Below are positions 13,312 through 48,145 of a DNA stretch of 64,000 nucleotides, piece after piece. Numbering within the stretch: the first letter of the stretch is position 1; the number at the start of each line of letters is the position of its first letter. The translations under genes were made by a program, and so were the position numbers. The notes beneath the pieces were generated by a model, which was not told the DNA's origin, did no database searches, and saw only the letters and a program-made list of their open reading frames with translations. The stretch comes from Raja brachyura. Lineage: Eukaryota. The DNA is taken from positions 50,964,001 through 51,028,000 of the forward strand of contig OY740795.1 in NCBI GenBank assembly GCA_963514005.1, read 5' to 3'.

Positions 13312-13450
13312 TGTGGTGGATGTTCCACTGTGGTGGATGTTGATGTCAAAATGTATTTTGTTGCTCTTTATTGGTATGACTGTATGGCAAATCAAATTCC
13401 TCGTATATGTTGCAAAACATACCTGGCTAATAAATTACTATTATGATTAT
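13312..13450 (+). mobile_element. 3' end of GC-rich non-autonomous retroelement (copy D) with Rex1/Babar-like tail
   Basis: Core ctgtggtggatgttgatgtc...tttattggtatgactgtatggc. Tail caaattcctcgtat...catacctggctaataaa resembles 53502-53540. Confidence 0.6.
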
Positions 13451-13552
13451 TTACACAGTGTAAAAGATAAAACTCTGTTACACTGTAAATTGTACGATAA
13501 CAATGAAGATATAAACCACAGTTGGAAATAATCTAGAAACAAGGAGCTGCAG

Positions 13553-14410
13553 ATCATAAGGTTATGTGATAGGAGCAGAATTAGGCCATTTGGCCCATCA
13601 AGCCTACTCCGCCATTCAATCATGGCTGATCTATCTCTCCTAACCCCATTCTCCTGCCTTCTCCCCATAACCTCTGACACTTGTACTTATCAGGAATCTA
13701 TCTATCTCTGCCTTAAAAATATTGACTTGGCCTCCACAGCCTTCTGTAGCAAAGAATTCCACAGATTTACCACCCTCTCACTAAAGAAATTTATCCTTCC
13801 TAAAATAACGTCCTTTCATTCTGAAGCGATGACCTCTAGTCCTAGACTCTTCCACTAGTGGAAACATCCTCCGGGAGTCTCCGCAGTCTCCGGGGAGGAA
13901 GTGGCCGCTCCAGACATTTCCAAGCCGCTGAGGAGTGTTCACCCGACGCCGGAGTTGCATCTTCCCGGCAAGAGGGCCTGAAAACATCAGACTGGCTGCG
14001 GAGGCCACAAATAGGCCCCGACCTCGGGTGGTCACAGAGGAAGAGGACTGTGATCACCCGAGTGGAAAATTTTGATTCTGTTGTGGGGGGACGTTCATGT
14101 TGAATTCTATAATGTGTTGTGTCATTTTTCTCTTTTTTAATTTTTCTATGGATGTACGGAAACTTCATTATTGTTTTCTATGTAAAGCACTTTGGTTTCA
14201 ACGTGAGTTGATTTAAACGTGCTATATAAATAAAATGTACTCACTTACTTACTTACATCCTCTCACGTCCACTCTATCCAAGCCTTTCACTTTTCTGTAT
14301 GTTTCAATGAGGTCCCCCCTCATTCTTCTAAACTCCAGTGAGTACAGGCCCAGTGCCAACAAACACTCATCATAGGTTAAGCTACTCATTCCTGGGATCA
14401 TTCTTATAAA
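13553..14410 (-). mobile_element. CR1 LINE 3' fragment split by an insertion at 13872-14254
   Basis: LGLYSLEFRRMRGDLIETY and MFPLVEESRTRGH lie on either side of the insert. Confidence 0.85.
13872..14254 (+). mobile_element. GC-rich non-autonomous retroelement (copy A, 5'-truncated) with L2-like tail
   Basis: 8-bp TSD ACATCCTC (13864-13871 and 14255-14262). Ends tgtaaagcactttgg...gtgctatataaataaa...(TTAC)n. Body is homologous to 47361-48145. Confidence 0.8.
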
Positions 14411-15169
14411 CAGATGTAAGCGGATGCTTGTAGGCAGATGCAGGTTGACAAAAAAAGACACAGTACTGGAGTAACTCAACAGGTCAGGCAGCAACTCTGG
14501 AGAACATGGAGAGGTGATATTTCGGGTCGGGACCCTTCTTCTGCCCATGTTTTCCGGGGATGCTGACTGACCAGCTAAATTACTCCAGCCTTTGTGGGGG
14601 TTTTTGGAAATAATCCAGTTGTGTATAATATGAAGTCGTTTTTAAAATGATATGGACAGGAAAATTTAGCCCATTTATGAAAGACAATGATGCTATGTAA
14701 TTATGGGTCTGCATACAGTGTACAAGCATGATACCAATGAAAGGCATCACATCTTAGAGCAAAGCATCTCCAATCCAAAATATGTACATGGGAAATTTCT
14801 GGATTTGACCAAGAATCGCTGGTAATTAATGGATGATACCAAGGCTCAGAAACATCAGAGCAAATTCCAGGTCACAATAGGTGGAAGAGTCCACCACCCA
14901 GAACATCCAGAGACATGAGAGCAGCTGATCTCCTCTGCCTCATTCAGACTTTACACATGACCTGAAATGTCCTAAGTGTCACTGAGGTTCCCATTATGCC
15001 TAAGAATGCAAAACAGCAAGCTGCTGTAATTAAAATGTGACATTCAAATATACATTCCAAAGATAAGAATCAAATCAGAACAAATAATACTTAAAACACT
15101 TGAAAAATAATAAAATTCAATCATTATTTCAGAATGCATATCAACAAACAGGCAAGTACATGGTCAATC

Positions 15170-15452
15170 AGTGTGGGAAGGAACTGCAGGTGCTGGTTTA
15201 CACCAAAGATAGATACAAAATGCTGGAATAACTCAGTGCGACAGGCAGCATCGCTGGAGAAAAGGAAAAGGTGACGTTTCGGGTCGAGACCCTTCTTCAG
15301 ACTGAGAGTCGGGGGGAGAGGGAAACTAGAGATAAGAAAAGGTTCAAAGAACAAAAGAATGAAAAGTATGAAAAGAACAAATCAAAGCCAGCCAGATGAC
15401 CAAGGCAAGGTTGAGCCCACAATGGTCCATTGTTGGCTGTGGGGAAGGTGAT
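15170..15452 (-). mobile_element. Penelope terminal repeat with an intact hammerhead-like core (15273-15300), sense to the TdT pre-mRNA
   Basis: The plus strand gacgtttcgggtcgagacccttcttcag is the exact reverse complement of the core at 10591-10618. Confidence 0.8.
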
Positions 15453-15610
15453 AGCACATGCACATGAGAAACACAGGCCTTTCAAATGAATCTCAGCTTC
15501 CTTGTTCCATCTTCATCCATGACTTTCAACAGCTGGAAGTAGCATTCTTAACCACAGTACATATTAAAATAATATGTTGGAACATGATAGAGTTTCTCCA
15601 TTTTACCCAC

Positions 15611-15743
15611 CTTCTGAATCCTCCTGTTAACGTCACCTTGGCATCAGGGGTACATTGAACGACAATATCTTTGATTATTTGAATCACTGCTTCAGCTTCT
15701 GCTTTTCTTACAGCTTGTAGGATATCTTCATAGTACAAGAACC
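15611..15743 (-). CDS. DNTT: TdT coding exon (exon 7 equivalent; palm, GGFRR nucleotidyltransferase motif)
   Basis: ctcctcag|GGTTC...TTCAGAAG|gtgggt. 133 nt encoding (G)FLYYEDILQAVRKAEAEAVIQIIKDIVVQCTPDAKVTLTGGFR(R). The phase-1 start matches the end of the previous exon. Confidence 0.97.
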
Positions 15744-15872
15744 CTGAGGAGTAGATAGCTTTGTTACACAAAGTTATGCCACAGTTAAGGCAGAAAGCTG
15801 AAAGTACAAATCTTTATGTTTTGCATCCAAAATAGCTTATCATTCCATCCCAGCTGCCAGAGTACCACACTC

Positions 15873-16160
15873 TAGTTTAGTTCAGAAATACAGCACGGAA
15901 ACAGGCTCTTCGGCCCACCGAGTCCATGCTGACCGGCGATTCCATCACATTAATGCTATCCTACACACACTAGGGACAATATACAATTTTTACCAAGCCA
16001 ATTGACCTACAAACCTGCACGTCTTTGGAGTGTGGGAGAAAACTAGAGTTCTCGAGGAAAACGCATGCAGGTCACTGGGTGAACGTACAAACTATGGACA
16101 AGCCAGGTCTCCGGCAATGTGAGGGGGCAACTCTCCCGCTGCACCACTGTGCCCCCCGCA
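15873..16160 (-). mobile_element. V-SINE (HE1-like)
   Basis: (TTTAG)n tail, ggaaacaggctcttcggcccac, V-domain ttggagtgtgggagaaaac and tRNA-like head, all in reverse. Confidence 0.85.
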
Positions 16161-17569
16161 CTAAACATAAATAGCACAAATAACAAGGTTTAAGAAGGAA
16201 CTGCAGATGCTGGAAAAATCGAAGGTAGATTAAAATGCTGGAGAAACTCAGTGGGTGAGGCAGCATCTACGGAGCTAAGGAATAGGTGACGTTTCAGGTC
16301 GAGTAGATGCTACTGAATAATAAGGTTCGTAGGTTCACTATGGGTACCGATTTATGAATCAGACAGAGACTCAAGAATTCTTGCTTACTTCAACAAATTC
16401 AGAAATGTCAAGTAAATTCATCATAGTACATTAGTCTGAGTGATACCAGGTCAGTGTTGACAGTGTTGGTCCATGCTTCAGATAATGGAGTCAGGCCAAA
16501 GGACAATACTATATCATGCAAAGCTCAGTGAGTTCACACTGAAGTCATTAACTTTAAATGAGAGGGCATTATCTGCAGAGTCTCTATAGCATATATCAAC
16601 TTAGAGCAACAATGCTAGTGCCTCCTGCAGTCAAAGGTGCTCTAAATCCTGAAGCCACACAATGAGGTAATTAAGGTTTGATCGGTTTGGTCAGGCAGTC
16701 AGGCTGATCCCCCCCCTCCCACCAGATATTCTGGCATTGCACGAGGTTTGTTGCTGAAGATCCAGGCAAGGATATGATTGAAGCTGGGAGGGCAGTAGGG
16801 CGACAGGTATCAGAGCAGCAGGAATTACAGATGCCTCACAGCTCCTGCCACCAGGCTTCAATCCTGATCCTGGTGCTGCTTGTGTGGAGTTTGCATGCTC
16901 TCCCTGCGACCGAGTGGGTTTCCACCAAGTGCTCCAGTGTCCTCCCACTACCCAGAGATGTCCCGTGTAGGAAGGAACCGCAGATGTTGGTTTAAACCAA
17001 AAATAGACACAAAAAGCTGGAGTAACTCAGCGGGACAGGCAGCATCTCAAGAGAGAAGGAATGGGTGATGTTTCGGGTCGAGACCCATCTTGAATCAAAG
17101 CTGTTCCGGTGGGTAGACTAACTGGTTACTGTAACTTACCCCTGAGTGGAGGTGGGTGGCAAGTGAATCAGGATGGAGTTAATTGGCATGGGAGAGAGAG
17201 AATAGGTATTGGAAAATAAGCAGGGACTGGGTTTGATGGGGTTGGTCGGAGAGTCGACAATGACTTGATGTGGCAAATTGCTTCCTTCTATTTTGCGAGA
17301 AACAATATGAGAATGTGTGCAGTTTCAGTTCAGTTTATTGCCGTGTGTATCGAGGTACAGCTGTTAACCATTTGAGTCTGATTGAAGTGTCTTTTAAAAG
17401 TTGTGAAATCTATATTCCTGCGGATTCCCTTAACGCCATATCATTATGCACAAATTCACGGGACACATCAGCGGGGACCGCAACAGGCCAACTTTCTCCA
17501 CACACTTCAAAAGACCTGTAGGAGCCCCATCCAAACACCACACAGCAGTGAATATAGTGGCAGGATTTA

Positions 17570-17843
17570 GGGTATAAGGTCGTAAGGTCATAAGTGATAG
17601 GAGTAGAATTAGATCAATCGGCCCATCAAGTCTACTCCTCCATTTAATCATGACTGATCTATCTCTCCTTCCTAACCCCATTCTCCTGCCTTCTCCCCAT
17701 AATCTATGACATCTGAACTAATCAAAAATCTATCTATCTCTGCCTTAATAATATCCACTGACTTGGCATCTACAGCCTTCTATGGCAAAGAATTCCATAG
17801 ATTCACCACCCTCTGACTAAAGAAATGTCTCCTCATCTCCTTT
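17570..17843 (-). mobile_element. CR1 LINE 3' fragment
   Basis: Reverse complement of the CR1 3' end; homologous to 13553-13800. Confidence 0.8.
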
Positions 17844-18964
17844 AGGTTGGGGCTTGGATCCCTGGATGGATCTCAAGGTGGTCATGGTGTTGCAACAGTC
17901 TCCAGAGAATTACACCATTGCCAACCACACGTACTTCTGCTGGCCATACACCAGGTAGCGCAGAGGTTTCATGTTGTGGTTACCGCAGGACAAAGCCAAG
18001 ATCAGTTAAATATTTCCAAAGTATATGGAACTGTGCCACATCTCTTCACTTCCTGCTTTGATATCGATGGTCTGGGACTTTCCCCAAGAGCTTACAACTG
18101 CACAATGTGGGGATGTTAAAATCCCTACGATGCGCTGGAATGTAAATCTCAAAAAGCAAAATGCTGCAGGGACTAGAAATCGGACTTGAAAAAGAAAAGC
18201 TGTAAATACTAAGAAGTTTTGGCAGTATCAGCGGGAAGAGAAACATTTAATGGGCCTTTGAGAGGTAATGACCTTTGAGAGATCATAAACGTTCATGTAA
18301 CCTTTGATACAGGTTAATGATCTTTCATCAGAACTGAGTGAAATTGGAAACCAAACATGGAAAGGAAGGAGAGAATGGAGCAGAGAAAGGAATGAGGGAA
18401 AGGGAATGGAAAGAACAAAGGGAATTGGTGTGAAAGGTTGGAGAACACGAGACAGCGAAGATGGTACCCGCTCGAGAGAGGGAGGTGAAGGCTTGTTCAT
18501 TGTGGCTGGGCTGTCTGGAGGACATGTAAAGCCAAGGAGATGAATTAGAATAGGGAAGAGACCAGGAGAAAGAATGCCAGAGCTGTGAGATACAAACTAT
18601 GGCAGTTGCTGGAATTCTGAAGTAGAGGAAAATGCACAAAATACTCAGTTTGAAGACTTTTTTGTCAGAATGGGAAAGGCTGGAATATAACTATCACCTC
18701 ATTTGTCTAGGAAAAATGCCAGTTTTAGTAACATGTACAAGGAGCAGACTTAAATATTTCCTCCAGCCTCCTGAAGCTACAAAGAACAGTAAATACCATT
18801 TCAGGAAGGGGCTAGAAGTCTGATTTCTAAGTTTGGATGGCAACTCTATAACTTCCACATTGTCAGCCATTATTATAGCTGTCCAGCAGTTGGTTTTCTT
18901 TCTCTCAGCCCAGATTCAAATCTTGAATTGCAATAAATAAAGATGTTGGAGCTACATCTACAGT

Positions 18965-19097
18965 GTGTAGGAAGGAACTGTAGATGCCAGTTTACACCGA
19001 AGATACATACAAAATGCCGGAGTAATTCAGCGTGACAGGCAGCAGCTCTGGAGAGGAGGAACGGGTGACGTTTCGGGTCGAGACCCTTCTTCAGACT
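18965..19097 (-). mobile_element. Penelope terminal repeat with an intact hammerhead-like core (19067-19094)
   Basis: Contains the same 28-nt core as 15273-15300. Confidence 0.8.
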
Positions 19098-19647
19098 CTA
19101 CAGTGTGTTCTGGGCTGCCCGTGTTTAAGGTCTAGGGGCCACACCCAGAAAGGGTGTCTTTGGTGAGATAAGGGGCATGAGAGTGGTGGGCATGGATGAG
19201 TGCTGTGGTGATGAGGGAGATCAGGGTCAACATTTCCTCACTCAATGGCAGTATGATTTATTTAAATAGGTGAAATTGGGTCAACTTCTTCAAAGTGGGC
19301 TACATTATTTCAGTGCGCAATAAATATTCTCCTTCAACTATTTTGTTTAACATGAAATTTAAATGAAGGGGGTTAGTCCCTGGTTGACCCAGGACCTGTC
19401 ACCACTGATTTCTAGTCAGTTTGATAGTCAAGGAGCATCGCCTCCAGTTTCTGGAATTTTGTGGCCCAAATCAGTCAAATAACAAATATTATATTCCACT
19501 GCATTATAATATGAATGTTTATTTCTATTGCTATCTCCTTTTCTTCAGTTGTTTAAAAAAAACTTATAATTTCCTACAGCAAGCTTGACCTGGGCTAATA
19601 CCTGCAAATTTCTATTGTTGATCTTTGCCAATGACCAAAGTCACTAA

Positions 19648-19970
19648 AAGCCCTGTCCCACTGTACGAGTTCATTCAAGAGTTCTCCCCGAGTTTGCCCT
19701 GATTCGAACTCGGAGATTTACGGTAATGGCCTCTAACGGTCAGGACTCAGGGCTCTCGTGGACATTTTTCAACATGTTAAAAAATCTTCACGAGTCTTCC
19801 CGAGCTTACCGCGTTTCCCGAGTACCTGCCGTTAGCGTTACGAGCTGCTAAGAGACGTTCCTGAGCTCCGACGTACCCGCTACGTACATTCTACGTGCTT
19901 CCACGAGTTTGATTTATTTTTTTTAACTCGGGAGAGCTCTTGAATGAACTCGTACAGTGGGACAGGGCTT
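19648..19970. mobile_element. PIF/Harbinger-type MITE family B, copy 1
   Basis: Long TIRs aagccctgtcccactgtacgagttcattcaagag ... ctcttgaatgaactcgtacagtgggacagggctt; second copy at 48458-48765. Confidence 0.85.
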
Positions 19971-21524
19971 TTTGTCTCTTTTAGGTGTCTGCTATTGTTT
20001 AGTTTAGAAGAATCATTTTAGTCGAACAATGACCATCGGTGAGAAGATAACAAATCATATGGCGCTGACTGATGTCTGGAGGTGACATCTTTGAAGTTAC
20101 TGGCAATAGCTATTTTTTCTTTTATTATTAATATTACGCCTTGTTATAATAATATTATATCAGAATATCCAATTAAATATTTATGATAATTGATTTGCTT
20201 TTGATTTGGTCAAAGAATGACAAATTGAGTATATTGTTAATTAATGAGCTAAGGAATAGTTACGTGATATTTTCCTGTTTTTATCAGATCTTTCTATGAA
20301 TAAAGTCCACTAAACTATCAGAATACTGTGCTTTCGTTTGGTGAAATTGAAGGCTCGATATATCAAATTAAATCCAATATCAGAAAAGGAACATGAATAG
20401 CTATTACATCATATTAAGTCCCTTGGTCATGGAACATGTTATAGTCTGATATCATTCCATTTTTAATAGTCCTATATCATTCCATTTTAAAGTTTCTTCA
20501 CAACTGTTATCAGCAACTGAACTGTCCTCTCACCAGCTGGTGCAGTCTTGACTTCCCATCTACCTCATTGAAAACCTTTGAACTATCTTTGATTGGACGT
20601 TATCTTGCACCTTTTATCCTTTCCCTGTGCACTGTGGATGGCCTGATTGTAATCATATGCAGTCTTTTCTGTGACTGAATCACATGCAATAAAAACTATG
20701 CACTGTACCGACGGCGCATGTGATAATACAAAGTAAACTAAGTCAAAGCTTAGACTTTAAGCCTCATTAGTGTGAGCTCATTACAAGTTAAAAAAGATCT
20801 CAACCCTGAGCAAGTCGTCATTGTTTGAGGCCAACGCAGAATAATGGTGCCAACAGCAGGATTCCAAACACCAAGAGCAAGCCCACTCCCACAGTAACAT
20901 TGCTACTTATGCACCAGCACATTATTGATCTCACTAAGTCTATTAATCCCAACGTCAACATGGAAGATGTTCTAGAGCAGAAAAGCAGCGCGCCCGTAAA
21001 GAATTCTGATGCCTCCTTGCCAATATCCCAGCTTAATGTCAACTTCCGCAAGCCAGTCCTGGTAAAATAAGGCACATGAGATACAGACGCAAAACATATT
21101 TACCTTTCATTCCCCCTGCACCTGATTGTGCTAGCTCTTGCCCTCCCCCTCCCATACCCCATTATATTGGCTACCTCCCCTCTACTGTTTCAGTGGAGAT
21201 GAAGCATCTCAACCTGCAATGTCAACCACCTTTGATTTCCCTCCAGAAACGCTGTCAGATCCATTGGGTTCCTCGAGCAGTTCTTCTGTTTTTGCCAATG
21301 TGAAAGGCCATTGAGATAGATGAGAAGAAAATAGGCCAATGTTTGAGACTCCACTAACATTACTAGGGCAGGGTGGCAGATGAAGGAAATGGATGTGCAG
21401 GGAAAGCAGTGATGTGGACCGAGTGCAGGCAGAGGATATTCACCTGGTGCCATGTTTGGCACAGACATTGCGGGTCGAAGGTCCTGTTTCTACGCTATAC
21501 TGTTCAATATTCAATGAAAATTTG

Positions 21525-22103
21525 AATATAGGAGAATAGGTCCTTCTGCAGTTGTACAGGGCCCTGGTGTGACCACATCTGAAGTATTGTGTGCAATTTT
21601 AGTCTCCTAATTTGAGGAAGGACATCCTGGCTATTTGAAGCAGTGCAGCGTGGGTTCACAAGGTTAATTCCTGGGATGGCGGGACTGTTCATATGAGGAA
21701 AGATTGTAAAGACTGGGCTTGTATTCACTGGAATTTAGAAGGATGAGAGGGGATCTTATAAAAATGTATAAAATTATAAAAGGACTGGAAAAGCTAGATG
21801 CAGGAGAAATGTTCCCAATGTTGGGGGAATCCAGAACCAGTCTAAGAATAAATGGGAAGCCATTTATAACTGAGATGTGAAAAAGAGTTGTGAATTTGTG
21901 GAATTCTCTGCCAAAGAAGGCAGTAGAGGCCAATTCACTGAATGAATTTAAAAGAGAGTTAGATAGAGCTCTGGGGGCTAGCAGAATCAAGGGATATGGG
22001 GAGAAGGCAGGCACAGGTTACTGATTGTGGATGATCAGGCATAATCACAATGAATCGATGGGCCAAATGGTCTCCTCCTGCACCTATTTTCTATGTTTCT
22101 ATG
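21525..22103 (+). mobile_element. CR1 LINE 3' fragment
   Basis: Collinear with 24180-24800; ends ttctatgtttctat. Confidence 0.9.
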
Positions 22104-22385
22104 AAAACAAAGGCAAACTGATAGCATCAGTTTATGACATTCTTGTATCAAGATTAGGAAGGAAATTCAAAACCAACCTGCCACGCTTCTCAACACACAG
22201 ATGCATCCTGCAGCAAATTTGAGCTTACCTTTGCCTTGGTGTCAACATATTAATCACAATCCGTATAGAAGCAGGGAAGAAGCAAAGAGAGAATTGAAAT
22301 AAACATAATCATTGATGAGTTTGGTTTTGCCCATTGAGTTAATACTGTGCACAATATATGTACAATTCACCGTTCCAAATATTAC

Positions 22386-22509
22386 CTGCCTTCTGCATTT
22401 TTGTAAACGTGATATCCTTTCTTGCTTTTATTTCCTCCAAAGTCCGAAAGCCTAGTCCATACCACTTGTCAGCTGTCTTCACACCAACACCAAAGACACT
22501 GGTGAATAG
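22386..22509 (-). CDS. DNTT: TdT coding exon (exon 6 equivalent; fingers HhH motif)
   Basis: ttactgcag|CTA...AAGGCAG|gtaat. 124 nt encoding LFTSVFGVGVKTADKWYGLGFRTLEEIKARKDITFTKMQKA plus 1 nt of the next codon. Confidence 0.97.
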
Positions 22510-23123
22510 CTGCAGTAACATAATTTGCATTGACTGGAGGTAATTGCTCTGTTAAGGTTCATAGCTGCATCATATACATTCTTAGAAATGCTTCAAAATA
22601 TCAAAAATAATGAAGTCTTAAGAATAAATATGCAAACTTTCTCAGGCAGGCTAATACTAACTGAAAATAAATGGTTATTAACATGTTAACTCTGAGTCAC
22701 ACAAAATTAAATTAGAGGAGTTCTATAGTTTTATATATCATGAGCTCAGCTTCAATATATTAGACATAAGAAGTATTAATTTTGCTGCAAATGTTTACCC
22801 TCCGTTGCTACTTTACCCATTACATAACATTATTCAGAAGATAGACTGAAAAAGCTGGAGTAACTCTGTGGGACAGGCAGCATCTCTGGATAGAAGGAAT
22901 GGGTGACGTTTTGGGATGAGACCCTTCTTCAGACTGAGAGTCAGGGGAGAGGGAGACACGGAGATAAGGTCGGGTAAGGTGTGAAAACGTGACATCAAAA
23001 GAGATACAGCTCCACAAAATGCAGAATATATCATTGTTAGCTATGAGAAGGTGACAACAAAGCAAACAGAGATAAAATGTAAGCGGGGGGGGTGGGGAGG
23101 GGGTACAGTCAGACTGTTTGGAG

Positions 23124-23527
23124 CAAAGATCCTATAGCGAGCAAGATAGACCACTCGACGAAAAAGACGTAGTACAGTCATGGGCAAATTCATGGGTAAT
23201 TGTCGGCCCCATTTCCGTAACCGGCTTCCATCTCTGCACCAAAGATCCCATAGCGGAGCAAAGATACTAGTGCGGAGACGGAAACTGGTTACAGAAACAT
23301 CCTTGTAAAAATAAAAGTTATTTGGTAAAAATCTTCTCCACATTTTCAGAATTATAATTTATTAACACAAACTCTTCCCCCGCATCGTTGATTACACTGC
23401 GAGTTGGGTCGGGTCGGGTTACTGAAATGGATGAAAAAAAGGCCCACGTTCCACTCCGTTGCGTATTACATGTCAGCCCATTGCATTTAGAAGGAGTGGT
23501 CTATCTTGCTCCGCTATAGAATCTTTG
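23124..23527. mobile_element. hAT-type MITE inserted at the end of a Penelope fragment (22840-23123)
   Basis: TIRs caaagatcctatagcgagcaagatagaccactc / gagtggtctatcttgctccgctatagaatctttg, with a perfect 8-bp TSD GTTTGGAG (23116-23123 and 23528-23535). Confidence 0.9.
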
Positions 23528-23715
23528 GTTTGGAGAACATTATTTATTACACTTTCAATCCTTAACACACAACCCATTCATTACGCACATTCCTCCAGTG
23601 CCTACCAACACCTATTAGACATTCCAGTTGCCCACCTAACATGATATTCCTTTCCACTGATATCTACAATGGGTTGGTGCCCTGCAACATGTTCATATTT
23701 CCCAGTACATTCTCT

Positions 23716-24814: not shown

Positions 24815-24868
24815 TAATCACTGTAAACAATTTGAAACTTGTGCTGTCGCCCATTGTCTAGTATTTAC

Positions 24869-36341: not shown

Positions 36342-36643
36342 AGTTTAGTTTAGAGATACAGGAGCAGAAACAGGCCCTTCGGCCCACCGATCGCACACTG
36401 ACCAGCGATCCCCGCACATTAACACTATCCAACACACACTAGGGACAATTGATAATCTTCACCAAAGCCAATTACAAGCCTATACGTCTTTGGAGTGTGG
36501 GAGGAAAGTGGAGCACCTGGAGAAAACCCACGCATGTCATGGGGAGAACGTACAAACTCCGTAAAGACAGCACCCATAGTCAGGATTGAACCCGGGTCCC
36601 TGGCCCTGTAAGGCAGCAACTCTACCACTGCGCCACCGTGCCT
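36342..36643 (-). mobile_element. V-SINE (HE1-like), full length
   Basis: Reverse complement starts ggaggcacggtggcgcagtggtagagttgctgccttac and ends (CTAAA)n. Confidence 0.9.
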
Positions 36644-37864
36644 CCCGAGCCACTAATGCAGTTGCTCTGGAAATATATTCTAAAACTGATTCCATGTGAA
36701 AAGAAATAAGTTTTTTTTGAAGTCAAAGATAATAATAGGAGTAGCTTGGTCCAAATAGTCCTGATGGACATCCTATTTTTTGGATCATTTTATACAGAGA
36801 TGGATTTAAGAATGATGCTCTCATGTCAATCACAGTATGACACAATCACAGACACGGTGCCCAGATTATGTTAAAATGAATAACTGCAGTACTTTCCTTC
36901 CACAGAATTGAAAATGTTTTTCATCCTGTACTTATGAAAGCTTTCATCGTTTATTTATTTTCAGAGGATAAAACAAAGCAGGAATTGATTGAAACCAAAG
37001 TGCATGTGATTTTATATAACATCACTGATAGAATAGGTCACAGGCAAATCATGGCTGTGATTAGACCATTAGGGAGGATAGATCTCCCAAACTGTTATAA
37101 GCATAATGACTAACATTTTGCCATTCTGCTTATTTCAATAATATTTTTTCCTCTGCTATTAACACCTGACATGATGAGCGACATTAAAGTAAAGAATAGC
37201 AAGAAACGTCTGATCTAACAGCAGGTGCAGACTATTAAGCAGACATTTATTTTTCAATCCTGCCTCATTGCTATAAAAAAAACACAGCTGGGTTCTTGGA
37301 TTTTTGAGGTCACAACTCCAGCTGTGTCCAAAATGAAATCGCTCGTTCAAAAATATTTTCAAAAAGTAAATTCTCAGAGGTAGATGTTGTCTGGTGGATG
37401 GATTTTACAGTACCTATTCAATCCTCATTGTCAGTGGTGCTTTTACATCACCAAGCTTGCAGAGTGCCCATTAAAATCAGTGTGAAACACTCACACAAGC
37501 ACCTGAGTGTTATTAGGCATTTGTAATAGTCTCTATAAATGCTTCTTTATATAATGCTATGTTTGGATGCTTCAGCCACACATGGCCTTAATTTCCTTTG
37601 TTTATTCTCAGCCTTAACCTACATAAATAATCCAGACTAACAATTAGATAAATGTCCTTCTCTTTTCTGATGATAGATCATTTCTTAGGAATCTTCGTCA
37701 GTTAAGGTGTAATGTTTTCAGTCACAGGCTTCCTCATGGTGTCTCATGCCATCCAATGGCATGCAGTCAAGGATCTGAGACACAAGAGAGTACAGATGCT
37801 GGAACCAAGAACAAAAAATAAACTGTGGGAGGAACTCAGTGGATCGAACAACACCCGTGGAGAA

Positions 37865-38732
37865 AAGGGACTTGGATAGGTTGGGTGAGTGGGCAAATGC
37901 ATGGCAGATGCTGTATAATGTGGATAAATGTGAGGTTATCCACTTTGTTGGCAAAAAAAGGAAAGTAGACTATTATCTGAATGGTGGCCGACTAGGAAAA
38001 GGGGAGATGCAACGAGACCTGGGTGTCATGGTACACCAGTCATTGAAAGTAGGCATGCAGGTGCAGCAGGCAGTGAGGAAAGCGAATGGTATGTTAGCAT
38101 TCATAGCAAAAGGATTTTGGTATAGGAGCAGGGAGGCTCTACTGCAGTTGTGCAGGGTCTTGGTGAGACCACAGCTGGAGTATTGCGTACAGTTTTGGGC
38201 TCCTAATCTGAGGAAAGACATTCTTGCCATAGAGGGAGTACAGAGAAGGTGCACTAGACTGATTCCTGGGATGGCAGGACTTTCATATGAAGAAAGACTA
38301 GATAGACTCGGCTTATACTCGCTAGAATTTAGAAGATTGACAGGGGATCTTATAGAAACGTACAAAATTCTTAAGGGGTTGGACAGGCTGGATGCAGGAA
38401 GATTATTCCCGATGTTGGGGAAGTCCAGAACAAGGGGTCACGGTCTAAGGATAAGGAGGAAGTCTTTTAGGACCGAGATGAGAAAAACATATTTCACACA
38501 GAGAGTGGTGACTCTCTGGAATTCTCTGCCACAGAAGGTAGTTGAGGCCAGTTCATTGGCTATATTTAAGAGGGAGTTAGATGTAGCCCTTGTGGCTAAG
38601 GAGATCAGGGGGTATGGAGAGAAGGCAGGTATGGGATACTGAGTTGGATGATCAGCCATGATCATATTGAATGGTGGTGCAGGCTTGAAGGGCCGAATGG
38701 CCTACTCCTGCACCTAGTTTCTATGTTTCTAT
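37865..38732 (+). mobile_element. 5'-truncated CR1 LINE, tail-to-tail with minus-strand CR1 fragments (38733-39190)
   Basis: The 267-aa ORF 37839-38642 is the CR1 ORF2 C-terminus. Confidence 0.92.
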
Positions 38733-39519
38733 AAGTGATAGTAGCTGAATTAGGCCATTCAGCCCATCAAGTTAACTCCACCATTCAATCATGGCTGATC
38801 TATCTCTCCCTCTCAACCCCATTCTCCAGCCTTCTCCCCAGAACCTCTAATACCTGTGCTAATCAAGAATCTATCCATCTCGGCCTTAAAAATATCCACT
38901 GACGTGGCCTCCACAACCTTCTGTTGCAATGAATTCCACAGATTCACCACCCTCTGACTAAAGAAATTCCACCCCATCTCCTTCCTAAAGGTCCTTTTAT
39001 TCTGAGGCTATATACTCTGGTCCTAGACTCTCCCACTAGTGGAAACATCCTCTCCATATTCACTCTATCCAAACATGGAAACATAGAAACAAAGAATATT
39101 GGTGCCGAGTAGGCCACCAATGCCATCATTGAGCCAGTGCCATCATTCAATGTGATCATGGCTGATCATCCACAATCAGTACCTTACACTTGGATTGTCG
39201 ATGTTTCAGGTCAAGGCCCTGCATCAGGCCTAAGTGTGGAAAGGGAAAATAACCAGTATCAAGAAGACCTAATGCAGGGTGTCCACCTGAAACATCAATC
39301 ATTCCTTTCCCCCTCCCCGCAGATGCTATCCAATTTGTTGTTGCTCCAACAGATTGTTTTATAAATCAATATTACAATGTCAACTCAAAAACTACCCCAG
39401 ATCCGTAATGAGTGTTCTGACAGAGGGAGGCACTAACTGGCTCGTAGAAGTCAAATAAGATTCATACAAATAAACTGAGAACTCCCACGAGTCAGGAAGA
39501 ACTAAAACAAACCCAATGA

Positions 39520-41183
39520 GTCCAGAGTAGGATTTTGATAAGGTGCTGCATACGAGATAGCAGGACAAGATAGGTATTACAGCCAAGGTCCTAGCATGGA
39601 TAGAAGATTGGCTGACTAGCAGAAGGCAAAAAAAGTGAGAACAAAGAGAAGCTTTTCTGTTGGCCCCCCGTGACGTGATGTTCTGCAGGGGTCGGTGTTG
39701 GGTCCTCTACTTTTCACGTTATATGTTAATAATCAGGATAATGGAATTGATGGCTTTGTGGCCAAGTTTGCAGATCATACAGGTGGAGGAGATAATTGTG
39801 TTGAGGAAGCAGGGACTCTGCAGAAGGACTTGGACAGGTTAGGAGAGTGGGCATAGAAGTGGCAGATGGAATACAGTACAGCAAAGTGTATGGTCATGCA
39901 TTTTGGTAGAAAGAATAAAGGCGTAGTCTATTTTCTAAATGCGGAGAGGATTAAGAAATTGGAGGTGCAAAGGGACTTGGGAGCGCTGGTGCAGGATTCC
40001 CTAAAATTTGCAGGCTGAGTTCTTGGTAAAGAAGGCAAACGCAATGTTAGCATTCGTTTTGAGAGGAATAGGATAGAAAAATAAGAATGTAATGCTGAGG
40101 CTTTCTGAGGCACTGGCCAGACTGCACATGGAGTACAGTGAACAGTTTAGGACCCCATATCTGAGGAGGATATGCTGTTGTTGCAGAGGGTCCAGAGGAG
40201 GTTTACGTTAGGTTCTTGTTTGCAAGGAGAAGGCAGAAGAATGGGGTTGAGATGCAAAAATAGATAAGAAAGGATAGAACGGCAGAGCATTCTATCCTTT
40301 CTGGCATAATTCTGGTCCTCTGTCTCCATGATCATAAGGTCATAAGGTCATAAGTGATAGGAGCAGAATTAGGCCACTTGGCCCATCAAATGTGCTCCGC
40401 CATTCAATCATGGCTGATCTATCTCTCCCTCCTAACCCCATTCTCCTGCCCTCTCCACATAACCTCTGACACCCGCACTAATCAAGAATCGATCTCTCCG
40501 TCTTAAAAATATCCACTGACTCGGCCTCCACAGCCTCCTGTGGCAAAGAATTCCACAGATTTAACACTCTCTGACTAAATAAATTCCTCCTCATCCCCTT
40601 CCTAAATGAATGTAGTTTAATTCTGAGACAATGACCTCTAGTCCTAGACTCTCCCACTAGTGGAAACATCCTCTCCGCATCCGCTTAATTCATGCCTTTC
40701 ATTATTCTGTATATTTCAATGAGGTCCCCCTCATTCTTCTGTACTCCAGCGAGTACAGGCCCAGTGCCTTCAAACGATCATCATATGTTAACCTACTCAT
40801 TCCTGGGATCATTCTTGTAAACCACCTCCCCAGGGCCAGAACATCCTTCCTCCGATATGGTGCCAAAATTGCTCACAATATTTTAAATGCAGCCTGACCA
40901 GCACCTTATAGAGCCTCAGCATTACATCCCTGTTTTTGCATACAAGCCCTCTTGATATAAATGGTAGCATTGAGTTTGCTTTCTTTACTGCCGATTCGAC
41001 TTGCCGATTAACTTTTTGGGAATCCTGCACCAGCATTCCCAAGTCCCTTTGCACCTCCGATTTCTGGATTCTATCCCCATTTAGTCAATAGTCTACACCT
41101 TTACTGCTACTATCAAAATGCACGACTCCACACTTTGCTACACTATATTCCATCTGCCACTTCTCTGCCCACTCTCCCAACCT
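39520..41183. mobile_element. Cluster of older CR1 fragments (+ 39520-40210, - 40332-41183)
   Basis: Degenerate RT motifs (tggccaagtttgcagat; QRDLGMLVQDSQKV; MFPLVGESRTRGH). Confidence 0.8.
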
Positions 41184-41523
41184 GAACCCTTATTGTCTTA
41201 TGGTCATATGAAAAAGGAAACACAAAGAACAAACGCTTGATCTATTTTTAATTAATGGTAATTATTGACCAAGACACCAAGGACAACCCCCTCTTGCTGT
41301 TCTTCAAAATAATGCCTGGGATCTTTTATAAATACCTGTGGACAAACATGGGTAGATTGGACAGATAAGTATCTTCACCAGTTCGGATAAGTCACCAGAT
41401 AAGTATCTTCACCAGCACATGTTCGGAGGACTACAAGGATCTGATATGATTATATCAGAATGATATAAAGATGCACATAATGCTGCACCTTTATATCATT
41501 GTACAATTTCATTTTCCTTATTT

Positions 41524-41904
41524 TTTAATTTTTTTTTATTTATTAGAGGTAAATACACCAATGTACACATATATTCTGTTACAATCATTGTACCCCATAA
41601 TTTTATGGCTTTTAAAGAAAAAGAATAGAGAGAAAGAGAGTGAAATGTGAAAAGAGTTGTGATAGTGAAAGAGCGTGCCAAAGGGGAGAAGAAACCCTTG
41701 GTCAAAGAATTAGAAAAGGGGGTTAAAAGATAGACCCTAAAAAAAGAAAAAGAAAAAAAGACAGTTATTATGTTATATATATCACGCAAAAGGAATCCAC
41801 CAACGCGATAGTTTTCCATCGCCCCCCTACCAAGGCCCGAGGTACTCCTGCACCCTATCTTTGTAGTAATTCGATAATGCAGACCACGTCTGATAGAAGC
41901 GTTC
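41524..41904 (-). mobile_element. Polyadenylated 5'-truncated retroposed fragment (L1-clade-like 3'UTR)
   Basis: 15-bp TSD TCATTTTCCTTATTT at 41509-41523 and 41905-41919. The minus strand ends AATAAA plus an A-rich tail. Confidence 0.8.
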
Positions 41905-42380
41905 TCATTTTCCTTATTTATGGCAATGTGAAAAGCTGACACAAAGGTTGTAAGTATTCACACTTGATTTCAATGTCTAAGGTAAGAAATTAGATATTCA
42001 CCATATTCCACTGTAACCTAAATGTAACTGGAACATCCTACCAACTACTAGAGAGCTGTCCTGAGCTACTATCTACCTCGTTGAAGACTTTAGACTATCT
42101 TTGATCTACTGGGCTTTATCTTGCACTAAGCGTTATTCACATGATTCGCTTTATCATGTATCTATACACTGTGAATGGCTCGATTGTAATCATGTATTGT
42201 CTTTCCACAGACTGGTTAGCACGCAACAAAAGCTTTATACTGTACCTCGGTACAGGCGACTGTAAACTGAACTCAAACTCAAATAGAAACCCCAGAGAAA
42301 CAGTTTATATAATTGTTTAACATCAAAGTGGATGGTTATTCTCGCCACAGGTGAAAGTTGTCATTGAAACCTCCTTATAA

Positions 42381-43569
42381 AGGGCCTGTCCCACTTTCCC
42401 GAGTTATTCACGAATTCTCCCGAGTTTTCAAACTCGCAGATTGATTGATTAAGGTTTATTTAATAGGGACAGATACAAAAGCATAGATACACTTGAAACA
42501 GTCATCTGATGTATGCATCATCGTGTTTTTAGCCAAGGCTAATTTGCAACACTTGTCCCTAGTAGGGCTTTTGTCAGCAGCATACAATAATAAAGAACAC
42601 ACAAATACACAATAAAAATGTAACATAAGCATCCACCGCAGCATTCGTCACTGTGGTGGAAGGCACAACATTTGCCAGTCCTCCTCCACTTTCCCCGTGG
42701 TCGGGACCTGAACCCTCCGCAGCCGTCGCTGCAGGTGTCCAGACAAGGTAAAGTCCAGGGTCGGCTCTCCGCACCGGAGACCGCGGCTTCAGGCTGGTAT
42801 AGGCCGGCGGTTGAAGATTTAAAGTTCCCGCCGCTGCCAGAAGCACCGCAGACAGCAGGGCCGGCGGTCGAAGCTCCCCTCCGGGGGTGATGGTAAGTCC
42901 ATGCCGGACCCGCGGTAGAAGTAGGCCGCGGGCCGGCGGTGGTGGCTCCTTCTTCCCCCAGGTCCCCCACGAGGAATCCCGGGCTGCGGACGCCGCTCCC
43001 CGCTGGAGCTCTGCAGACCGCGGCTTCAGGCTGCCGACTGCCGTGGGCCAGCGAAATGAAGGGCTCCCCTCCGGCGAGCTCCCCGCCGAGTGTCCACGCT
43101 GCGCCCGCCGCTGAAGTCCCGGGCGCATCTCCGGGAAAGGCCGCGCCGATCCTTGTTGTTAGGCCACGGGGGAGGCGTGGAAGAGGCAGCCAAAACGGGT
43201 TCCCCCTTACCCCCCCCACACCAACCCCCACACAAGACACACCAAGAAACATTTAAACGGTGCACTGAAACATACTAAAAACAAAAAAAAGTGTAAAAAA
43301 GACAGACAGCTGCTAACAGGGCTGCCGGCTTGCAGCGCCCCCACCGACCCAGTAGGTACTCGGGGCATCAGGCAAGTCGGGACGTTTTTCAGCATGTTGA
43401 AAAATGTCCACGAGTAAAAAAATAGTCCCGAGTACCTTTGGCTGGCATAACGGGCCACTACGATATACCCACGAACTCCTACGGCCTCCTACGGACTCGT
43501 TACGAACATTCTGCGAGTTTGAAAACTCGGGCGAATTAGTGAACAACTCGGGAAAGTGGGACAGACCCT
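42381..43569. mobile_element. PIF/Harbinger-type MITE family D, interrupted by a GC-rich retroelement
   Basis: TIRs agggcctgtcccactttcccgagtt / aactcgggaaagtgggacagaccct with a perfect TAA TSD (42378-42380 and 43570-43572). Confidence 0.88.
42439..43345 (-). mobile_element. GC-rich non-autonomous retroelement (copy C, apparently full length) with a (CAAT)n tail
   Basis: Head ggcgctgcaagccggcagcc, T-tract, G-tract, CpG-rich body, core cccgaccacggg...gaggaggactg...gcggtggatgcttatgtt, tail ...taaataaaccttaatcaatcaatc. Confidence 0.75.
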
Positions 43570-44505
43570 TAAGTCTCCTTCCAAACTTCATTCTAACCAA
43601 ATAAATGTAGCCTTTCTCTCTCATCGGTTTGTCCAGTTTCCTCTTCAAACATCTGTGTGCTTCCTGCCTCAACTATTTCCTTTGGTGATGAGTTCCACAT
43701 TTTAACCACACTATTGCCACAATAGTTTCTGCTGAACTCTTGGCCACTTTGACGTTCCATTTTAGAGCACGGCATAAGGGAACCCGAGAGCAAAATGGAT
43801 CAGGCTTGGCATGGCCATTTAATAGTTGAACTTTCTTCCGACTCTTTACCGAATGCATTGCGAATCCAACCCACACCTTGCAAATGCGTTGAAGGTTCCA
43901 GGACCAAGGAATCACTTTCAGTTGCAGGAAATGATAACTGTATCAGTAGCTGCGGATTCCAACGACTGGTTTTCTTCTGCACTTTTCTTTTAGTTCCTTC
44001 CTTTTAAAACGCAAGGAATGGGGAAGGAAGTGGTTCACAGGATGGGCCCCCGTGAAGTGAGTAGGGAGGGGTGGAGGTTTACATAAGTGGGCCATTGTAC
44101 AGTTATGTGCAAGGTGCGATTTATAATTGTAAACAGTCTTAATCAATCTTTTGGTCAAAGCGAAGAATAGCAAAATACAGCCAAATAGCAAAACAAATTT
44201 GATGTGTAGGAAATGAACTGTAAATGCTGGTTTACACCAAAGACAGACACAAAATGCTGGAGTAACTTAACAGAACAGGCAGAATCTCTGGTGAGAAGGA
44301 ATGGGTGACATTTCGAGTCAAGACTATTCCTCCCGTCTGAAGAAAGGTCTCGACCCGAAATCTCACCCATTCCTTCTCCCCAGAGATGCCCTGTCCCCTG
44401 TCCCGCTGAGTTACTCCAGCATTTGGTCTATCTTCAAAATAAATTTGATAATCTATTTTATTTGGTGCATTCTGGAACATTACAGCCACATTTAATGAAG
44501 CCTAT

Positions 44506-45060
44506 CTTCTTCTTCTTGCGTATGGCGTGCACAGCCTAAAGTTGTAAATCAAGTGTAGACATCCAGGCCAGGACAGCATCAGTTACTGGGTGGATGGCTT
44601 TGATGCCACCAGGGAAAAGCCTCAGTGAGCAGTCATTCACGATGTGTGGGATGGTCTTGCCTGGATGTCCACAGTCACAAGCAGGGCCGTCTGTCACTGA
44701 TGCAGGCGATGGGCTGTTCTTGCATGGAGGGTGCGGATTCTGTTCAGGGTCAGCTATTGCTTGTGATGGAGGTCAAATCCCAGTGGTTTCACTGTGGGGT
44801 CTGTGATGACCTCTCCGTTGTTGGTGTTGGCATCTTTCCACGCTCTGCGCCACTCAGTCTTGGAGTCAAAGTCTTCCAGGAATTTGCTTGAAGACCAGAA
44901 GGGTTTGCAGGACTTCAGGCGTATGTTGGGCAGATAGTTCAAGTCAGCATGGATGGGAAGGTCAGGGTTAGCCTCGATGGTGCACCATCTCGGTTAAACA
45001 TCTTCTTCCTTCTGCGTATGCTGGGAGGGGCGATATGAGAGAGGACAGGGAGCCACTGCA
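44506..45060 (-). mobile_element. 3' fragment of an Ingi/Vingi-like (or RTE-X-like) LINE
   Basis: Minus strand RLKSCKPFWSS...PLGFDL, then a CCHC-type CDCGHPGKTIPHIVNDC; ends ...catacgc(AAG)n. Clade assignment is from memory. Confidence 0.65.
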
Positions 45061-47360
45061 AAGGTGTTGGCTTACGATTGATTGAAATTAATCATGGAAA
45101 ACCATGTCCCAAGGCTTTACTATGAAGGGATTTCCAAGTTGGGAAACGGGTCAGGAATTTGCATCTTATTTTGGAAGTTTTTCATCCCAAAACCAGGATG
45201 TCGGAGTGCCTGGAGTCTTCTGTTGAGGAGGGAAGATTACCCTAGAAGAGGCTGCAGCTGAGAATCTGAGGGACACCGTGTACTTTGCAAGAGGATTGTA
45301 GTGGAGACACAGTGAAGTTTGTCAGGACAAAGGGCGATTGCAGATGGACAGAGGTTAATGGCAAATGAGCCCTTATTGGTGAATGAGCGAAGAGTCCAGG
45401 AAGTGTATTTGGGATGGTGTTTAAAGGGCAATGGCATTTCAGTGATCACAGGGTTCAATGATGACAGCTGAGCAGTGAGGGAGGGGTCTGTGATCACAAA
45501 GGAAATTGTTTACAGGGCAGTGTCAGTGACCCAGTGATCACGGAGGGTGTCAGAGAACGGAGACATGTCCGCGATATCAGGGTTGAGAACTCTGAGGAAT
45601 GTCAGCGATGATTGCAGTGGGGGTACAACTGAATTAATGATACCTGTCATCATAAAGGAACAGTGATCATAGGGATGGGGTCAATAATTACAAGAGGGCT
45701 TTGATTCCGGGGCCTGGGTTTGTCTGTCACACACTCCATCTACTGTCCCATGGATACCTTTTCCATCAATCAGTCCTTTAGCTCTCAGTTGCACTACTGG
45801 AAAATGAGAAACACCATGTAGCCTTAATAAAACATTTTAATAAACAACCATCTTCCAGCGTGCCTATTAATTGTCCAAGTCCTGGCCCACATCCCTTAAT
45901 TAACCAGGATCAAGAGTTTGTTTCCTCTGCAACCTAAAAGCAATACCAACGGTTTCTGGAGTAACACTGTGTGGAAACAGGCCCTTTAGCCTAACTTGCC
46001 CACAACATGTCCCACCTACACTAGTCCCACCCGCCTGCGCTTGGCCCAAATCCCACCAAATCTGCCCTATCCATGTACCTGTCCATCCGTTTCACAAACA
46101 TTGGGATAGTCCCAGCCTCAACTACCTCCTCTGGCAGTTTGTTTCCCCCTCCATAGATGCTGCTTGACCCAAGTATTCCCAGTGTTTTCTGTCTTTATTT
46201 TATGTTATGCTGCTTGAAGAATATTTTGTAAAGATGAACACTAATTTATAAATTACATTTATCCTATGCAGTTCTTGTTTAGTTTTCTATACCTGGGATT
46301 TGGGGGCATCCATGTAAATAATTCCACTTCAAAGCAGCTGGCCTCCAGTTAAGCAAAGACAGCTGATTTTTGATTCAATATATACTGCATGTTTTTAACT
46401 GGAGAACATTATAGCAAACCCCTTTGGCTCTTGCAAATGGCGCTAAGGTATATTGAAATGTAATTTGCTTGATGATTACTCAGAATAAAGGGAGAACCAC
46501 AGAGAAAGTAGTATGATATCATCACCATGTCTGATCTTGACACACAATGAGTGTTAAAAAAATTGCACCTTGCACTTGGTAAGGTAATATATTCACGACA
46601 TTAATTGCTTACGCTGCTGATGGTTAATTCAATTATATATACAGAACATTTTCAAAAAATACAATGACAGAAAGTTTTGCATTGAATGTAAAATAAGGCA
46701 CGGCTTCCTGCATTTTGATGATCATTAATCGGGAGATCATTAATTTGAAGGTTACTAATGTGATGTATTGACTCTTTGGAAGTTGTATGTATTGACTCTT
46801 GAGATCTAACTATTCCTTTGGTTTATGTTTCATTCGCAAGAAGATTGACTGTTTCTTATGCTGCCTGATCTGTTGTGCATATCCAGATCTTTTTGTCAAC
46901 TTTATTTCAGATTTCCGTCATCTGCAGTATTGTTGTTTTTGGAAGTGGAATACTTTTTACAGTCCATGTGATCCAACTATTCCATAGCTGCATGTTGCTC
47001 CAACATGACAATCATTCAAGGGTTGTCTGAAGAAGGGTCTCGACCTGAAACATCACCTACTCCTTTTCTCTAGACATGCTGTCTGACCTGCTGAGTTACT
47101 CCAGCTTTTTGTGTCTTTCTTCAGTTTAAACTAGCATCTGCTGTTCCTTCCTGCACATAACTCCAAAGAGTTATATCACATCCCAGCTCAATAAATCTTC
47201 ATTAGTGTCACTAATAATGACAGCATTATTCTTCCTTTCCCAGTATTCAAGAGGGAGTTAGATTTAGCTCTTAGGGTTAACGGAATCAAGGGATATGGGG
47301 AGAAAGCAGTAACAGGGTACTGATTTTGGCTGATCAGCCATGACCATATTGAATGCTCGA

Positions 47361-48145
47361 AAGTTCAAATTACATTTATTGTCACATGCACCAGATTTGA
47401 GTTACCATACAGCTATACGAATAAAAAGAACACAACACACGATAGAATTTAACATGAACATCCACCACGCAGCGGAATCAACGTTTCCCACTGTGAGGGA
47501 AGGCGATAAAGTTCAGTCATCCTCCTCATTGTTCACCCGTGGTCGGGCCCTCTCACCGGGATGATCGGAACTCCGACGTCGGAATGGATGAACGCTCTCC
47601 AGTATAGAGTTTCCGAATCGGCCACTTCTTACCGGAGACCGCGGCTTCCAAAATCCACAGGCCAAGCTGGGCGGAGATACAAGACTGGCGACCCCCGGCA
47701 AAAGGCCCCAGGACTCTACGATGTTCGAGCCAGCACCGCCTGTGGTTAGAAGCTCCACAAACCACAGCTTCACGATGTTAAAGCAGCAGGCCCAACAGTC
47801 CGGAGCCTCGACACGGCGATCCCCGGTAAGGCATCGTCCCGCTCCGCGATGGAATTCAGTGCTGCGCCGCTGCTGAAGCTCTGGCTGGTCTGCGGCAGGA
47901 ATGGCCCCGCCAATCCAGATGGTAGGCCGCGAGGGGGGGGGGAGGGGGAAAGATGCGACTCGGAAAAAAGACGCATCATCGACCAGGAAGAGACTGAAAA
48001 CGGTTACCCCCTCCCCCCCCCCCCCCCCAACTCCCCCACATACAAAGACTAAGAAACCTCCAAAAACATACTTTTAAACAGACTCTAAATAACAAAAAGG
48101 GTGAAATGACAAACAGAATGCTGCCAAGGCTGCCGTGCACGACAC
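47361..48145 (-). mobile_element. GC-rich non-autonomous retroelement (copy B, apparently full length) inserted in a CR1 3' end
   Basis: Head gtcgtgcacggcagccttggcagc, T-tract, G-tract, body and core homologous to copies A and C; tail ggtgcatgtgacaataaatgtaatttgaac. Confidence 0.78.

Follow-up and report, generated by a model that had tools for sequence, protein, structure and literature searches.

Four GC-rich inserts in the genome of Raja brachyura raise the question of how non-coding elements with a common core can come to end in the tails of different long interspersed elements (LINEs). They lie in a stretch of 64,000 nucleotides of contig OY740795.1 (GenBank assembly GCA_963514005.1, positions 50,964,001 to 51,028,000 of the forward strand; G000:C15:50964001-51028000 of a 2.70-Gb genome), the whole of which we call the window. 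An initial annotation had described the inserts as a non-coding retroelement family and inferred a modular parasite that swaps tails in order to use several LINE machineries, in the manner of a short interspersed element (SINE) and possibly driven by an RNA polymerase II head of its own. The modular, non-coding character and the use of several LINE tails were borne out, whereas head and core proved to be LINE-derived. We consider it very probable that the inserts go back to a Rex1/Babar-type LINE with an internal deletion, in which the 5' untranslated region (UTR) and the first endonuclease codons are joined to a short 3' end, that this 3' end was replaced several times, twice with a non-Rex1 tail, and that the copies were likely retrotransposed by the proteins of the tail donor.

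A core profile run on the window returns exactly four members, namely the four inserts, which lie within a few bases of the places first given for them (the 5' end of insert C falls 4 bases further out, at 43349) and contain the core, head (B and C) and tail strings quoted at the time; their pairwise matches are beyond chance when searched against the window (A/B E 1e-12, B/C 3e-10, B/D 8e-10). Insert C (42439-43349, minus strand) is a full-length copy of the youngest subfamily, 98.1% identical to the consensus, with a head (43070-43349, 3' limit approximate) that bears a GGCAGCC motif, a T-tract and a G-tract, a core hairpin (42630-42664) that we read as two fused relics of Rex1 endonuclease codons, and a tail (42439-42573) from a third CR1-group LINE that ends in (CAAT)n as in the donor. 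It sits within an inverted-repeat element, a short unit with terminal inverted repeats at 42379-43566 that has a relative near 48480-48750. Insert B (47362-48148, minus strand) is near full length (positions 7-803 of 805, 90.2%), and has a head (47870-48148) homologous to the 5' UTR of the Rex1 parent described below, a core hairpin (47459-47504) and a Rex1-type tail whose stem carries a short deletion. Insert A (13872-14254, plus strand) is 5'-truncated (positions 513-896 of 896, 96.5%), lacks the 5' hairpin arm and ends in an L2-derived tail with (TTAC)n (14180-14254; 50/57 to L252). The 8-bp target-site duplication (TSD) reported for it is visible, its 5' copy read directly at 13864-13871 and its 3' copy at 14255-14262, where the first bases overlap the last repeat unit; the surrounding host fragment is presumably CR1-like. 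Insert D (13312-13450, plus strand), 95.5% identical to its consensus, is so strongly 5'-truncated (consensus 626-767 of 770) that only the 3' hairpin arm (13328-13339), a Rex1-type tail (~13393-13434) and a TAT/GAT repeat remain.

Each insert represents a multicopy family: in genome searches, 40 of 40 scored matches belonged to the family for each of B, A, C and D. The 28-30 best matches per family gave full-length units of 805 (B), 896 (A), 955 (C) and 770 bp (D), whose 5' end is reached by 12, 15, 20 and 12 copies, respectively, the others being 5'-truncated, while the 3' end and its microsatellite are kept in nearly all. Two tandem duplicates from L025 were dropped from these sets; they belong to a 6.5-kb tandem array at G000:C19:33.19-33.25 Mb (L025-L027) that carries superfamily copies with shared flanks, as do several segmental duplications at C1:2.2-3.4 Mb. 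The common core is real, but the similarity extends beyond it, further than in the initial annotation: the subfamily consensuses align from the head through the body to the core (scores 224-748 vs shuffled 24-44). The genome contains 33,814 exact matches to a 16-base motif present in all four, compared with 7 to its reversed control, and a profile found 9 copies in 40 unselected 10-kb stretches, which corresponds to ~60,000 copies genome-wide with a wide error.

To survey the tails, we used the first 90 of the 100 motif matches listed, all of which lie in the first 6 Mb of contig 1 and 7 of which are segmental duplicates. The second core arm is present in 84 and the head in 61 (score at least 60; control maximum 47), and the tails fall into classes E1 (23), B-type (21), E2 (16), D-type (13), E3 (5), H (3), A (3) and C (0), with 6 unassigned, by a crude sorting pattern that gave at least three mislabels by eye. 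All classes but A and C have the Rex1-style AATTT, stem-loop, AATAAA and microsatellite found behind Rex1 open reading frames (ORFs). Furthermore, each class is a multicopy family with unique flanks, so that the tails are not one-off chance neighbours. Contigs in sequencing runs of four other organisms, which serve as presence evidence only, cover family C, and several of them bridge the junction of core and tail, so that it is no assembly artefact.

Other hallmarks are less uniform. Many TSD-flanked copies per tail class had been named as what would support the model, but such copies are the exception: exact TSDs of at least 7 bases were found in 2/30 A, 2/25 B, 3/30 C, 0/30 D and 4/23 G copies (controls 1-6%), counts that are too low because the scan missed the TSD of insert A itself. 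TSDs are not typical of these families, and most copies have none. The elements, of 770-955 bp, encode no intact LINE protein; only G, a longer subfamily introduced below, matches an endonuclease profile, and it is frameshifted; the GC-rich bodies do contain ATG frames of 88-215 aa, whose strand and place vary among subfamilies. GC content and observed-to-expected CpG ratio are 53% and 0.63 in the body of the parent LINE and 59-69% and 0.92-1.37 in the elements; the richness of the element bodies is a secondary gain. Superfamily elements are often interrupted by other repeats. In L015 (1781-1953) a superfamily head fragment is inserted within the element's own tail, and in L291 (minus strand, 47-510) the core of a D-type element runs straight into the 5' part of a Rex1 LINE of the young L306 type, a junction that is either an insertion or a head-swap chimera.

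Where head and core come from can be read from two of the 90 core matches, L351 and L396, which continue past the motif into ~300 extra bases and belong to the longer subfamily G (150/150 scored matches). Subfamily G reads as the N-terminus of an apurinic/apyrimidinic (AP) endonuclease (profile E 2.4e-6), and one natural G copy yields 116 residues that are 42% identical to medaka P0124 (E 2.4e-16), the domains of which are PF03372 (endonuclease), PF00078 (reverse transcriptase, RT) and PF09004, the last of which we take to be a Rex1 marker. Pfam recognised no domain in either of two natural G frames, and a tblastn search of L306 against the long variants did not find the endonuclease relic, which the profile did find. 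With the part of P0124 downstream of the G-matching stretch as query, a genome search led to a decayed Rex1-type LINE family, the parent, whose copies align along P0124; the three domains of P0124 are also present in L306. G is colinear with the first 750 bases of the parent (score 561), and three marks of the element head, the GGCAGCC motif, the T-tract and the G-tract, recur in the parental 5' UTR. Compared directly with the parental 5' region, the heads of G and D score 159 and 91, respectively, against shuffled maxima of 30-31; B, A and C are linked to the parent through G and D by consensus alignments, the head of insert C via B, D and G. The colinearity of G and the homology in the 5' UTR together indicate that the core consists of two coding relics fused after a second deletion, in which the short subfamilies lost ~300 bases between the arms of an inverted repeat and retained a hairpin of 10-13 bp, the core. 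At the level of sequence comparison, then, the head is the 5' UTR of the parent and the core two relics of endonuclease codons, LPSITxGNV and AVVAVY, which makes the elements an internally deleted LINE and not a SINE.

The parent is a different, older Rex1 lineage than the L306 type. Its assignment to Rex1/Babar, like that of the B, D and G tail donors, agrees with the AP endonuclease, RT and PF09004 of L306 and with the alignment of the parent copies along P0124; Rex1 elements without ORF1 are described in the accessible part of PMC13343379. A sister lineage of the parent (L482-L486, ~90% identity between copies) has its own tail with an (ATT)n end. The L306-L311 family (e.g. G000:C14:1027000-1033000) is a very young Rex1 family, with 97.7% identity between copies, intact single ORFs of ~1,040 aa and an ATG within the AAGATGGCG word at its extreme 5' end. 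This family and the L2 donor were both considered as sources of the head and ruled out, as the match is only to a short 5' word. Subfamily A (L033, L047, L052) is alone among the subfamilies in beginning with AAGATGGCGG, as does the L306-type family, a start which presumably resembles a YY1 site; subfamily A may have changed its 5' tip along with its tail.

A conventional SINE superfamily with an RNA polymerase (Pol) III head that exchanges tails, or alternatively a set of chance neighbours or the 3' UTR of one LINE, are further accounts of a common core with several tails, and tail exchange is indeed well known for SINEs (PMC5786205; available parts of PMC5499810). The head and core nevertheless trace to the 5' end of a LINE, each tail class is a family with unique flanks, and the core, for which the 3' UTR of a single LINE had been named as a refuting origin, is LINE-derived but comes from a 5' coding region. 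Consistent with the lack of an obvious tRNA A/B box noted at the outset, Rfam gave no small-RNA match in 4/4 loci (two chance matches, E 0.18 and 0.36), a tRNA search found none in 6/6 loci, and an A/B box pattern was found in none of 5/5 consensuses, in which a run of four T occurs within 48-70 bases of the start. A Pol III SINE head was therefore rejected. Of the features of a SINE the elements have the tail in common with a LINE, for A, C, D and G and without significance for B, and no Pol III head. We regard these three accounts as having next to no likelihood.

The tails come from three LINE lineages. They are LINE tails of different kinds, as had been recognised, but of three lineages and not four, given that B and D are both Rex1-type; A has ~55 bases of an autonomous L2 and C the end of a third CR1-group LINE, and the donor RTs are 27-30% identical to each other. 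The L2-like tail of A does have a partner in the genome: its consensus matches L2 copy L218 at 63/75 positions and its terminal motif has 1,548 genome matches, and of 30 loci with this motif, A copies account for 11, while at the other 19 it closes an L2-type 3' UTR, in 12 of them with the end of ORF2. This donor contains AP endonuclease (APE) and RT, the latter 28% identical to Rex1 and 23% to CR1-like elements. Upstream of one L2 copy (L253, minus strand, first 1449 bases) lies a 483-codon open frame with a P-loop, which presumably resembles an NLR/NACHT exon. Of 30 loci reached by a DNA search with the C tail, each was either a C copy or a tail on its own; the donor surfaced through a 15-base tail pattern (120 genome matches), for which 2 of 30 loci had other sequence upstream. 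It is an autonomous APE-RT LINE (L257) with 130/136 terminal bases in common with the C consensus and the same (CAAT)n end; its RT is 30% identical to L2, 27% to Rex1 and 22% to CR1-like elements. Six homologues carry no clade name, and from its motifs it is presumably Crack/Daphne-like. In both A and C the part taken over is exactly the donor's terminal segment of stem-loop and AATAAA.

Among the Rex1-type tails, those of D and G match two Rex1 families (56 and 62 vs shuffled maxima of 42 and 39). The stretch of ~50 bases that precedes the terminal stem may correspond to the parental 3' UTR (D 37/50, with a score of 42 that equals the shuffled maximum), and the terminal stem-loop differs from that of the parent. 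The window itself contains the tail of a decayed Rex1-type LINE (6100-6155, plus strand) of the type carried by G (score 53, shuffled maximum 39) and more loosely by B (29, shuffled maximum 37); the likeness of the B tail to this one, at ~6120, had been pointed out, and what stands of it is the Rex1 type, the closer relationship being with G. A 3' UTR of a Rex1-type family (L145/L110/L150) with a D-like tail lies at 53387-53554 (plus strand). The resemblance of the D tail to this site, at ~53500, is real (36/45, E 0.002), but the tail does not belong to the LINE to which it had been assigned and is that of a second Rex1 family joined to an upstream RT fragment. The locus (51798-53554, plus strand) has a chimeric LINE end, in which the RT of a Rex1 fragment (91% identity to the L306 family) breaks off at ~53382 and is followed by the 3' UTR of another Rex1 family, 83% identical to L145. 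A repeat of ~130-200 bp, very abundant and present at 1151-1980 and 7303-7470 of the window and at many further sites, often occurs in head-to-head pairs that form palindromes.

The order of the tail captures was assessed on a tree of 76 full-length copies, built from 337 of 761 head and core columns with the tails excluded and with three copies of the parent as the root; it contains no truncated or duplicate copies and none with an unassigned tail, and the tail labels were set before the tree. Subfamily A (7 copies) is sister to a Rex1-tailed B-type clade and C (6 copies) to a Rex1-tailed H copy, both with a bootstrap of 100, so that A and C are each nested within Rex1-tailed clades and represent two separate captures, in line with the repeated tail swaps first proposed. 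Constrained clades, chosen after the tree, were rejected for A+C (p-AU of the approximately unbiased test 5e-86), all B (1.6e-5) and all D (9.7e-5). Median copy-to-copy identity is 93.6% for C and 93.7% for its donor, 89.1% for A and 91.3% for L2, and 81.2%, 79.2% and 81.3% for B, D and the parent, respectively; the ages of A and C thus agree with those of their tail donors. Both swap junctions lie at the start of the old tail, and that of C has a 4-base word, CAAA, common to both parents.

The position of the junctions also bears on how the swaps came about. A 5'-truncated copy of L2 or of the Crack-like LINE might have inserted into the T-rich pre-tail, and read-through of the locus founded the subfamily, without any template switch at the RNA level. 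Very short 5'-truncated Crack-like tails do occur alone (L170, L176, L189, L246), and the interruption of superfamily elements by other repeats would fit such insertions. That both junctions fall where the old tail began, with the common word in C, is predicted by a template switch and not needed by random insertion. We regard a swap at the DNA level as rather unlikely; as the outcome would be the same, a new tail and a new helper, it competes with one step only of the mechanism proposed below.

Alternatively, the origin may be as described and the foreign tails mere passengers, with Rex1 proteins copying all subfamilies through relaxed recognition or by binding the hairpin. The 90 unselected core matches include at least six Rex1-style tail classes, many without an exact donor in the sample, a very young Rex1 family with intact ORFs is present in the genome, and the hairpin derives from Rex1 RNA and is kept in all subfamilies. 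On the other hand, what A and C kept of their donors is precisely the end with the stem-loop and AATAAA, together with the (CAAT)n in the case of C, their ages match those of the donors, and tail-dependent mobilisation is established for eel L2/SINE pairs (PMC3747384, in its available part). We find passenger tails improbable.

The hairpin at the core deserves separate consideration. In the parent the two relics form a 12-bp inverted repeat, with ~330 bases between them, that closes a predicted long stem, and all short subfamilies are predicted to fold a stem of 10-13 bp at the core. In an alignment of 40 rows, taken from 80 non-duplicate matches and the window, 94% of 520 hairpin cells are paired, compared with 32-66% in slid controls, and the covariation score exceeds 500 of 500 shuffles. 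Two pairs change on both sides, one from A-U in the parent to G-C in the elements and the other from A-U to C-G in the A/B clade (11 of 40 rows). A function of the hairpin is possible. It could also be the mere scar of the second deletion, left when RT jumped across the base of the long stem and functionless now: the arms were already an inverted repeat in the parent, independent double-sided changes are few, the 5' arm of the alignment was fixed by the search pattern, and insert A does without it. The persistence of the stem despite loops of ~5 to 20 bases and rearranged bodies, as well as the two double-sided changes, speak for more than a scar, an explanation that we hold to be a serious possibility without favouring it.

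Several observations weigh against the reading of the inserts as copies of a tail-swapping, internally deleted Rex1 LINE. The direct head-to-parent scores of B (42), A (34) and C (42) are near noise (shuffled maxima 35, 31 and 40). In the DNA examined, the terminal stem-loop of the parent itself was not found on any deleted element, as all four such tails (4/4) have no core upstream, and the product of the first deletion is therefore missing from the series. The B tail scores 37 against a Rex1 LINE, equal to the shuffled value of 37; among 11 LINE 3' ends tested, no donor was found for tail classes E1, E3 and H, and the best match of E2 is weak (37 vs 29). The terminal repeat of A (TTAC) differs from that of its L2 donor (GACTT), and both donor names, L2 and Crack/Daphne, are provisional ones taken from motifs, a C-terminal one in the case of L2. 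The ages are rough because the identity sets are samples of best matches. Of the 13 hairpin pairs only 2 show changes on both sides, a number that 464 of 500 shuffles reach as well, and one of the two may be a single event. Finally, transcription of the elements and their mobilisation in trans are inferred.

With these points in mind, the internally deleted LINE may be pictured as follows. The inherited Rex1 5' UTR would drive Pol II transcription. Acting in trans, a protein of the donor LINE would bind the 3' stem-loop and AATAAA, and its target-primed reverse transcription would produce 5' truncations and mostly no TSD. Tail swaps likely arose by template switching at short common words where the old tail began, candidates being CAAA at the C junction and the AATTT that opens Rex1 tails. 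That a foreign tail changes the helper LINE is suggested by the eel SINE/LINE work (PMC3747384, as far as its available text goes) and by the match in ages. New tails would have let the elements outlive the decayed parent, and selection may maintain the core hairpin. We tentatively propose, as an idea that falls a little short of even odds, a Pol II-type LINE remnant that acts like a SINE superfamily, the first large bipartite non-autonomous family from the Rex1/CR1 group, which outlived its parent by means of tails from three LINE lineages and in which a core domain forms from coding sequence as a selected RNA hairpin that works across LINE machineries.

Conserved SINE bodies are still of uncertain origin. 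According to a proposal by Kojima, they descend from LINEs that had undergone internal deletion, of which they represent the 5' parts, a trail that is lost once tails have been exchanged and the LINE is extinct (PMC5786205). Here the parent, the long intermediate, the short forms and the cross-lineage swaps survive in one genome, so that each step can be read, including how coding sequence can turn into a conserved structural core. One body with a Rex1, an L2 or a Crack-like tail provides natural matched constructs for testing the stringency of LINE 3'-end recognition. On a practical matter, automatic annotation is likely to split the ~60,000 CpG-rich inserts or to label them wrongly as L2, Rex1 or unknown. 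Rays have a high Rex1 content, and Crack/Daphne occurs in the little skate, according to the accessible part of PMC13343379, in which non-autonomous forms are not mentioned under the two spellings searched. Our literature search found, among the papers listed, no description of a non-autonomous Rex1 derivative or of the present family; subscription journals, Repbase Reports, Repbase/Dfam and the supplements of PMC5786205 and PMC13343379 lie outside it and could hold one.

The closest relatives in architecture are the bipartite non-autonomous LINEs without ORFs, reported from RTE, Ingi, Vingi and R2 only and thought to be transcribed by Pol II (PMC5786205), a range that the present family extends. 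RTE-N/BovA/WALLSI3, RIME, NARTc, the Vingi-1_EE derivatives and the R2 SIDE likewise consist of LINE 5' and 3' parts joined by internal deletion and have no small-RNA head (PMC5786205). The elements described here share the LINE-homologous 5' part (direct in G and D), the lack of an intact LINE protein and amplification as a unit with retroposon hallmarks; unlike the known cases, they come from Rex1/Babar of the CR1 group, keep decayed endonuclease codons and not the UTR alone, and have swapped tails across LINE lineages. The R2/R1 hybrid SIDEs of Drosophila also combine the 5' end of one LINE clade with the 3' end of another and are taken to use the machinery of the second; as described in PMC3414825, they carry a ribozyme at the head and occur rarely and in rRNA genes only, whereas in the present family the copies are dispersed and number in the tens of thousands, tails were captured twice across lineages and several times within Rex1, and forms of the ancestral type persist in the genome. 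Conserved bodies with exchangeable LINE tails are known from the CORE, V and Deu SINE superfamilies and from SacSINE1, CmiSINE and HE1 of cartilaginous fishes, and L2, CR1 and Crack are listed among the partners of such SINEs (PMC5499810 and PMC3747384, available parts); in these the head is of tRNA or 5S type and the body has no known source, while the present family has no Pol III head and its body goes back to the coding sequence of a LINE. Bird SINEs on bipartite RTE elements similarly have a GC-rich, tRNA-less 5' region (PMC5786205 and the accessible part of PMC7245038), but they are RTE-based and the origin of their head is given there as unknown, whereas in the family of R. brachyura the head can be followed to the 5' UTR of a Rex1 LINE.

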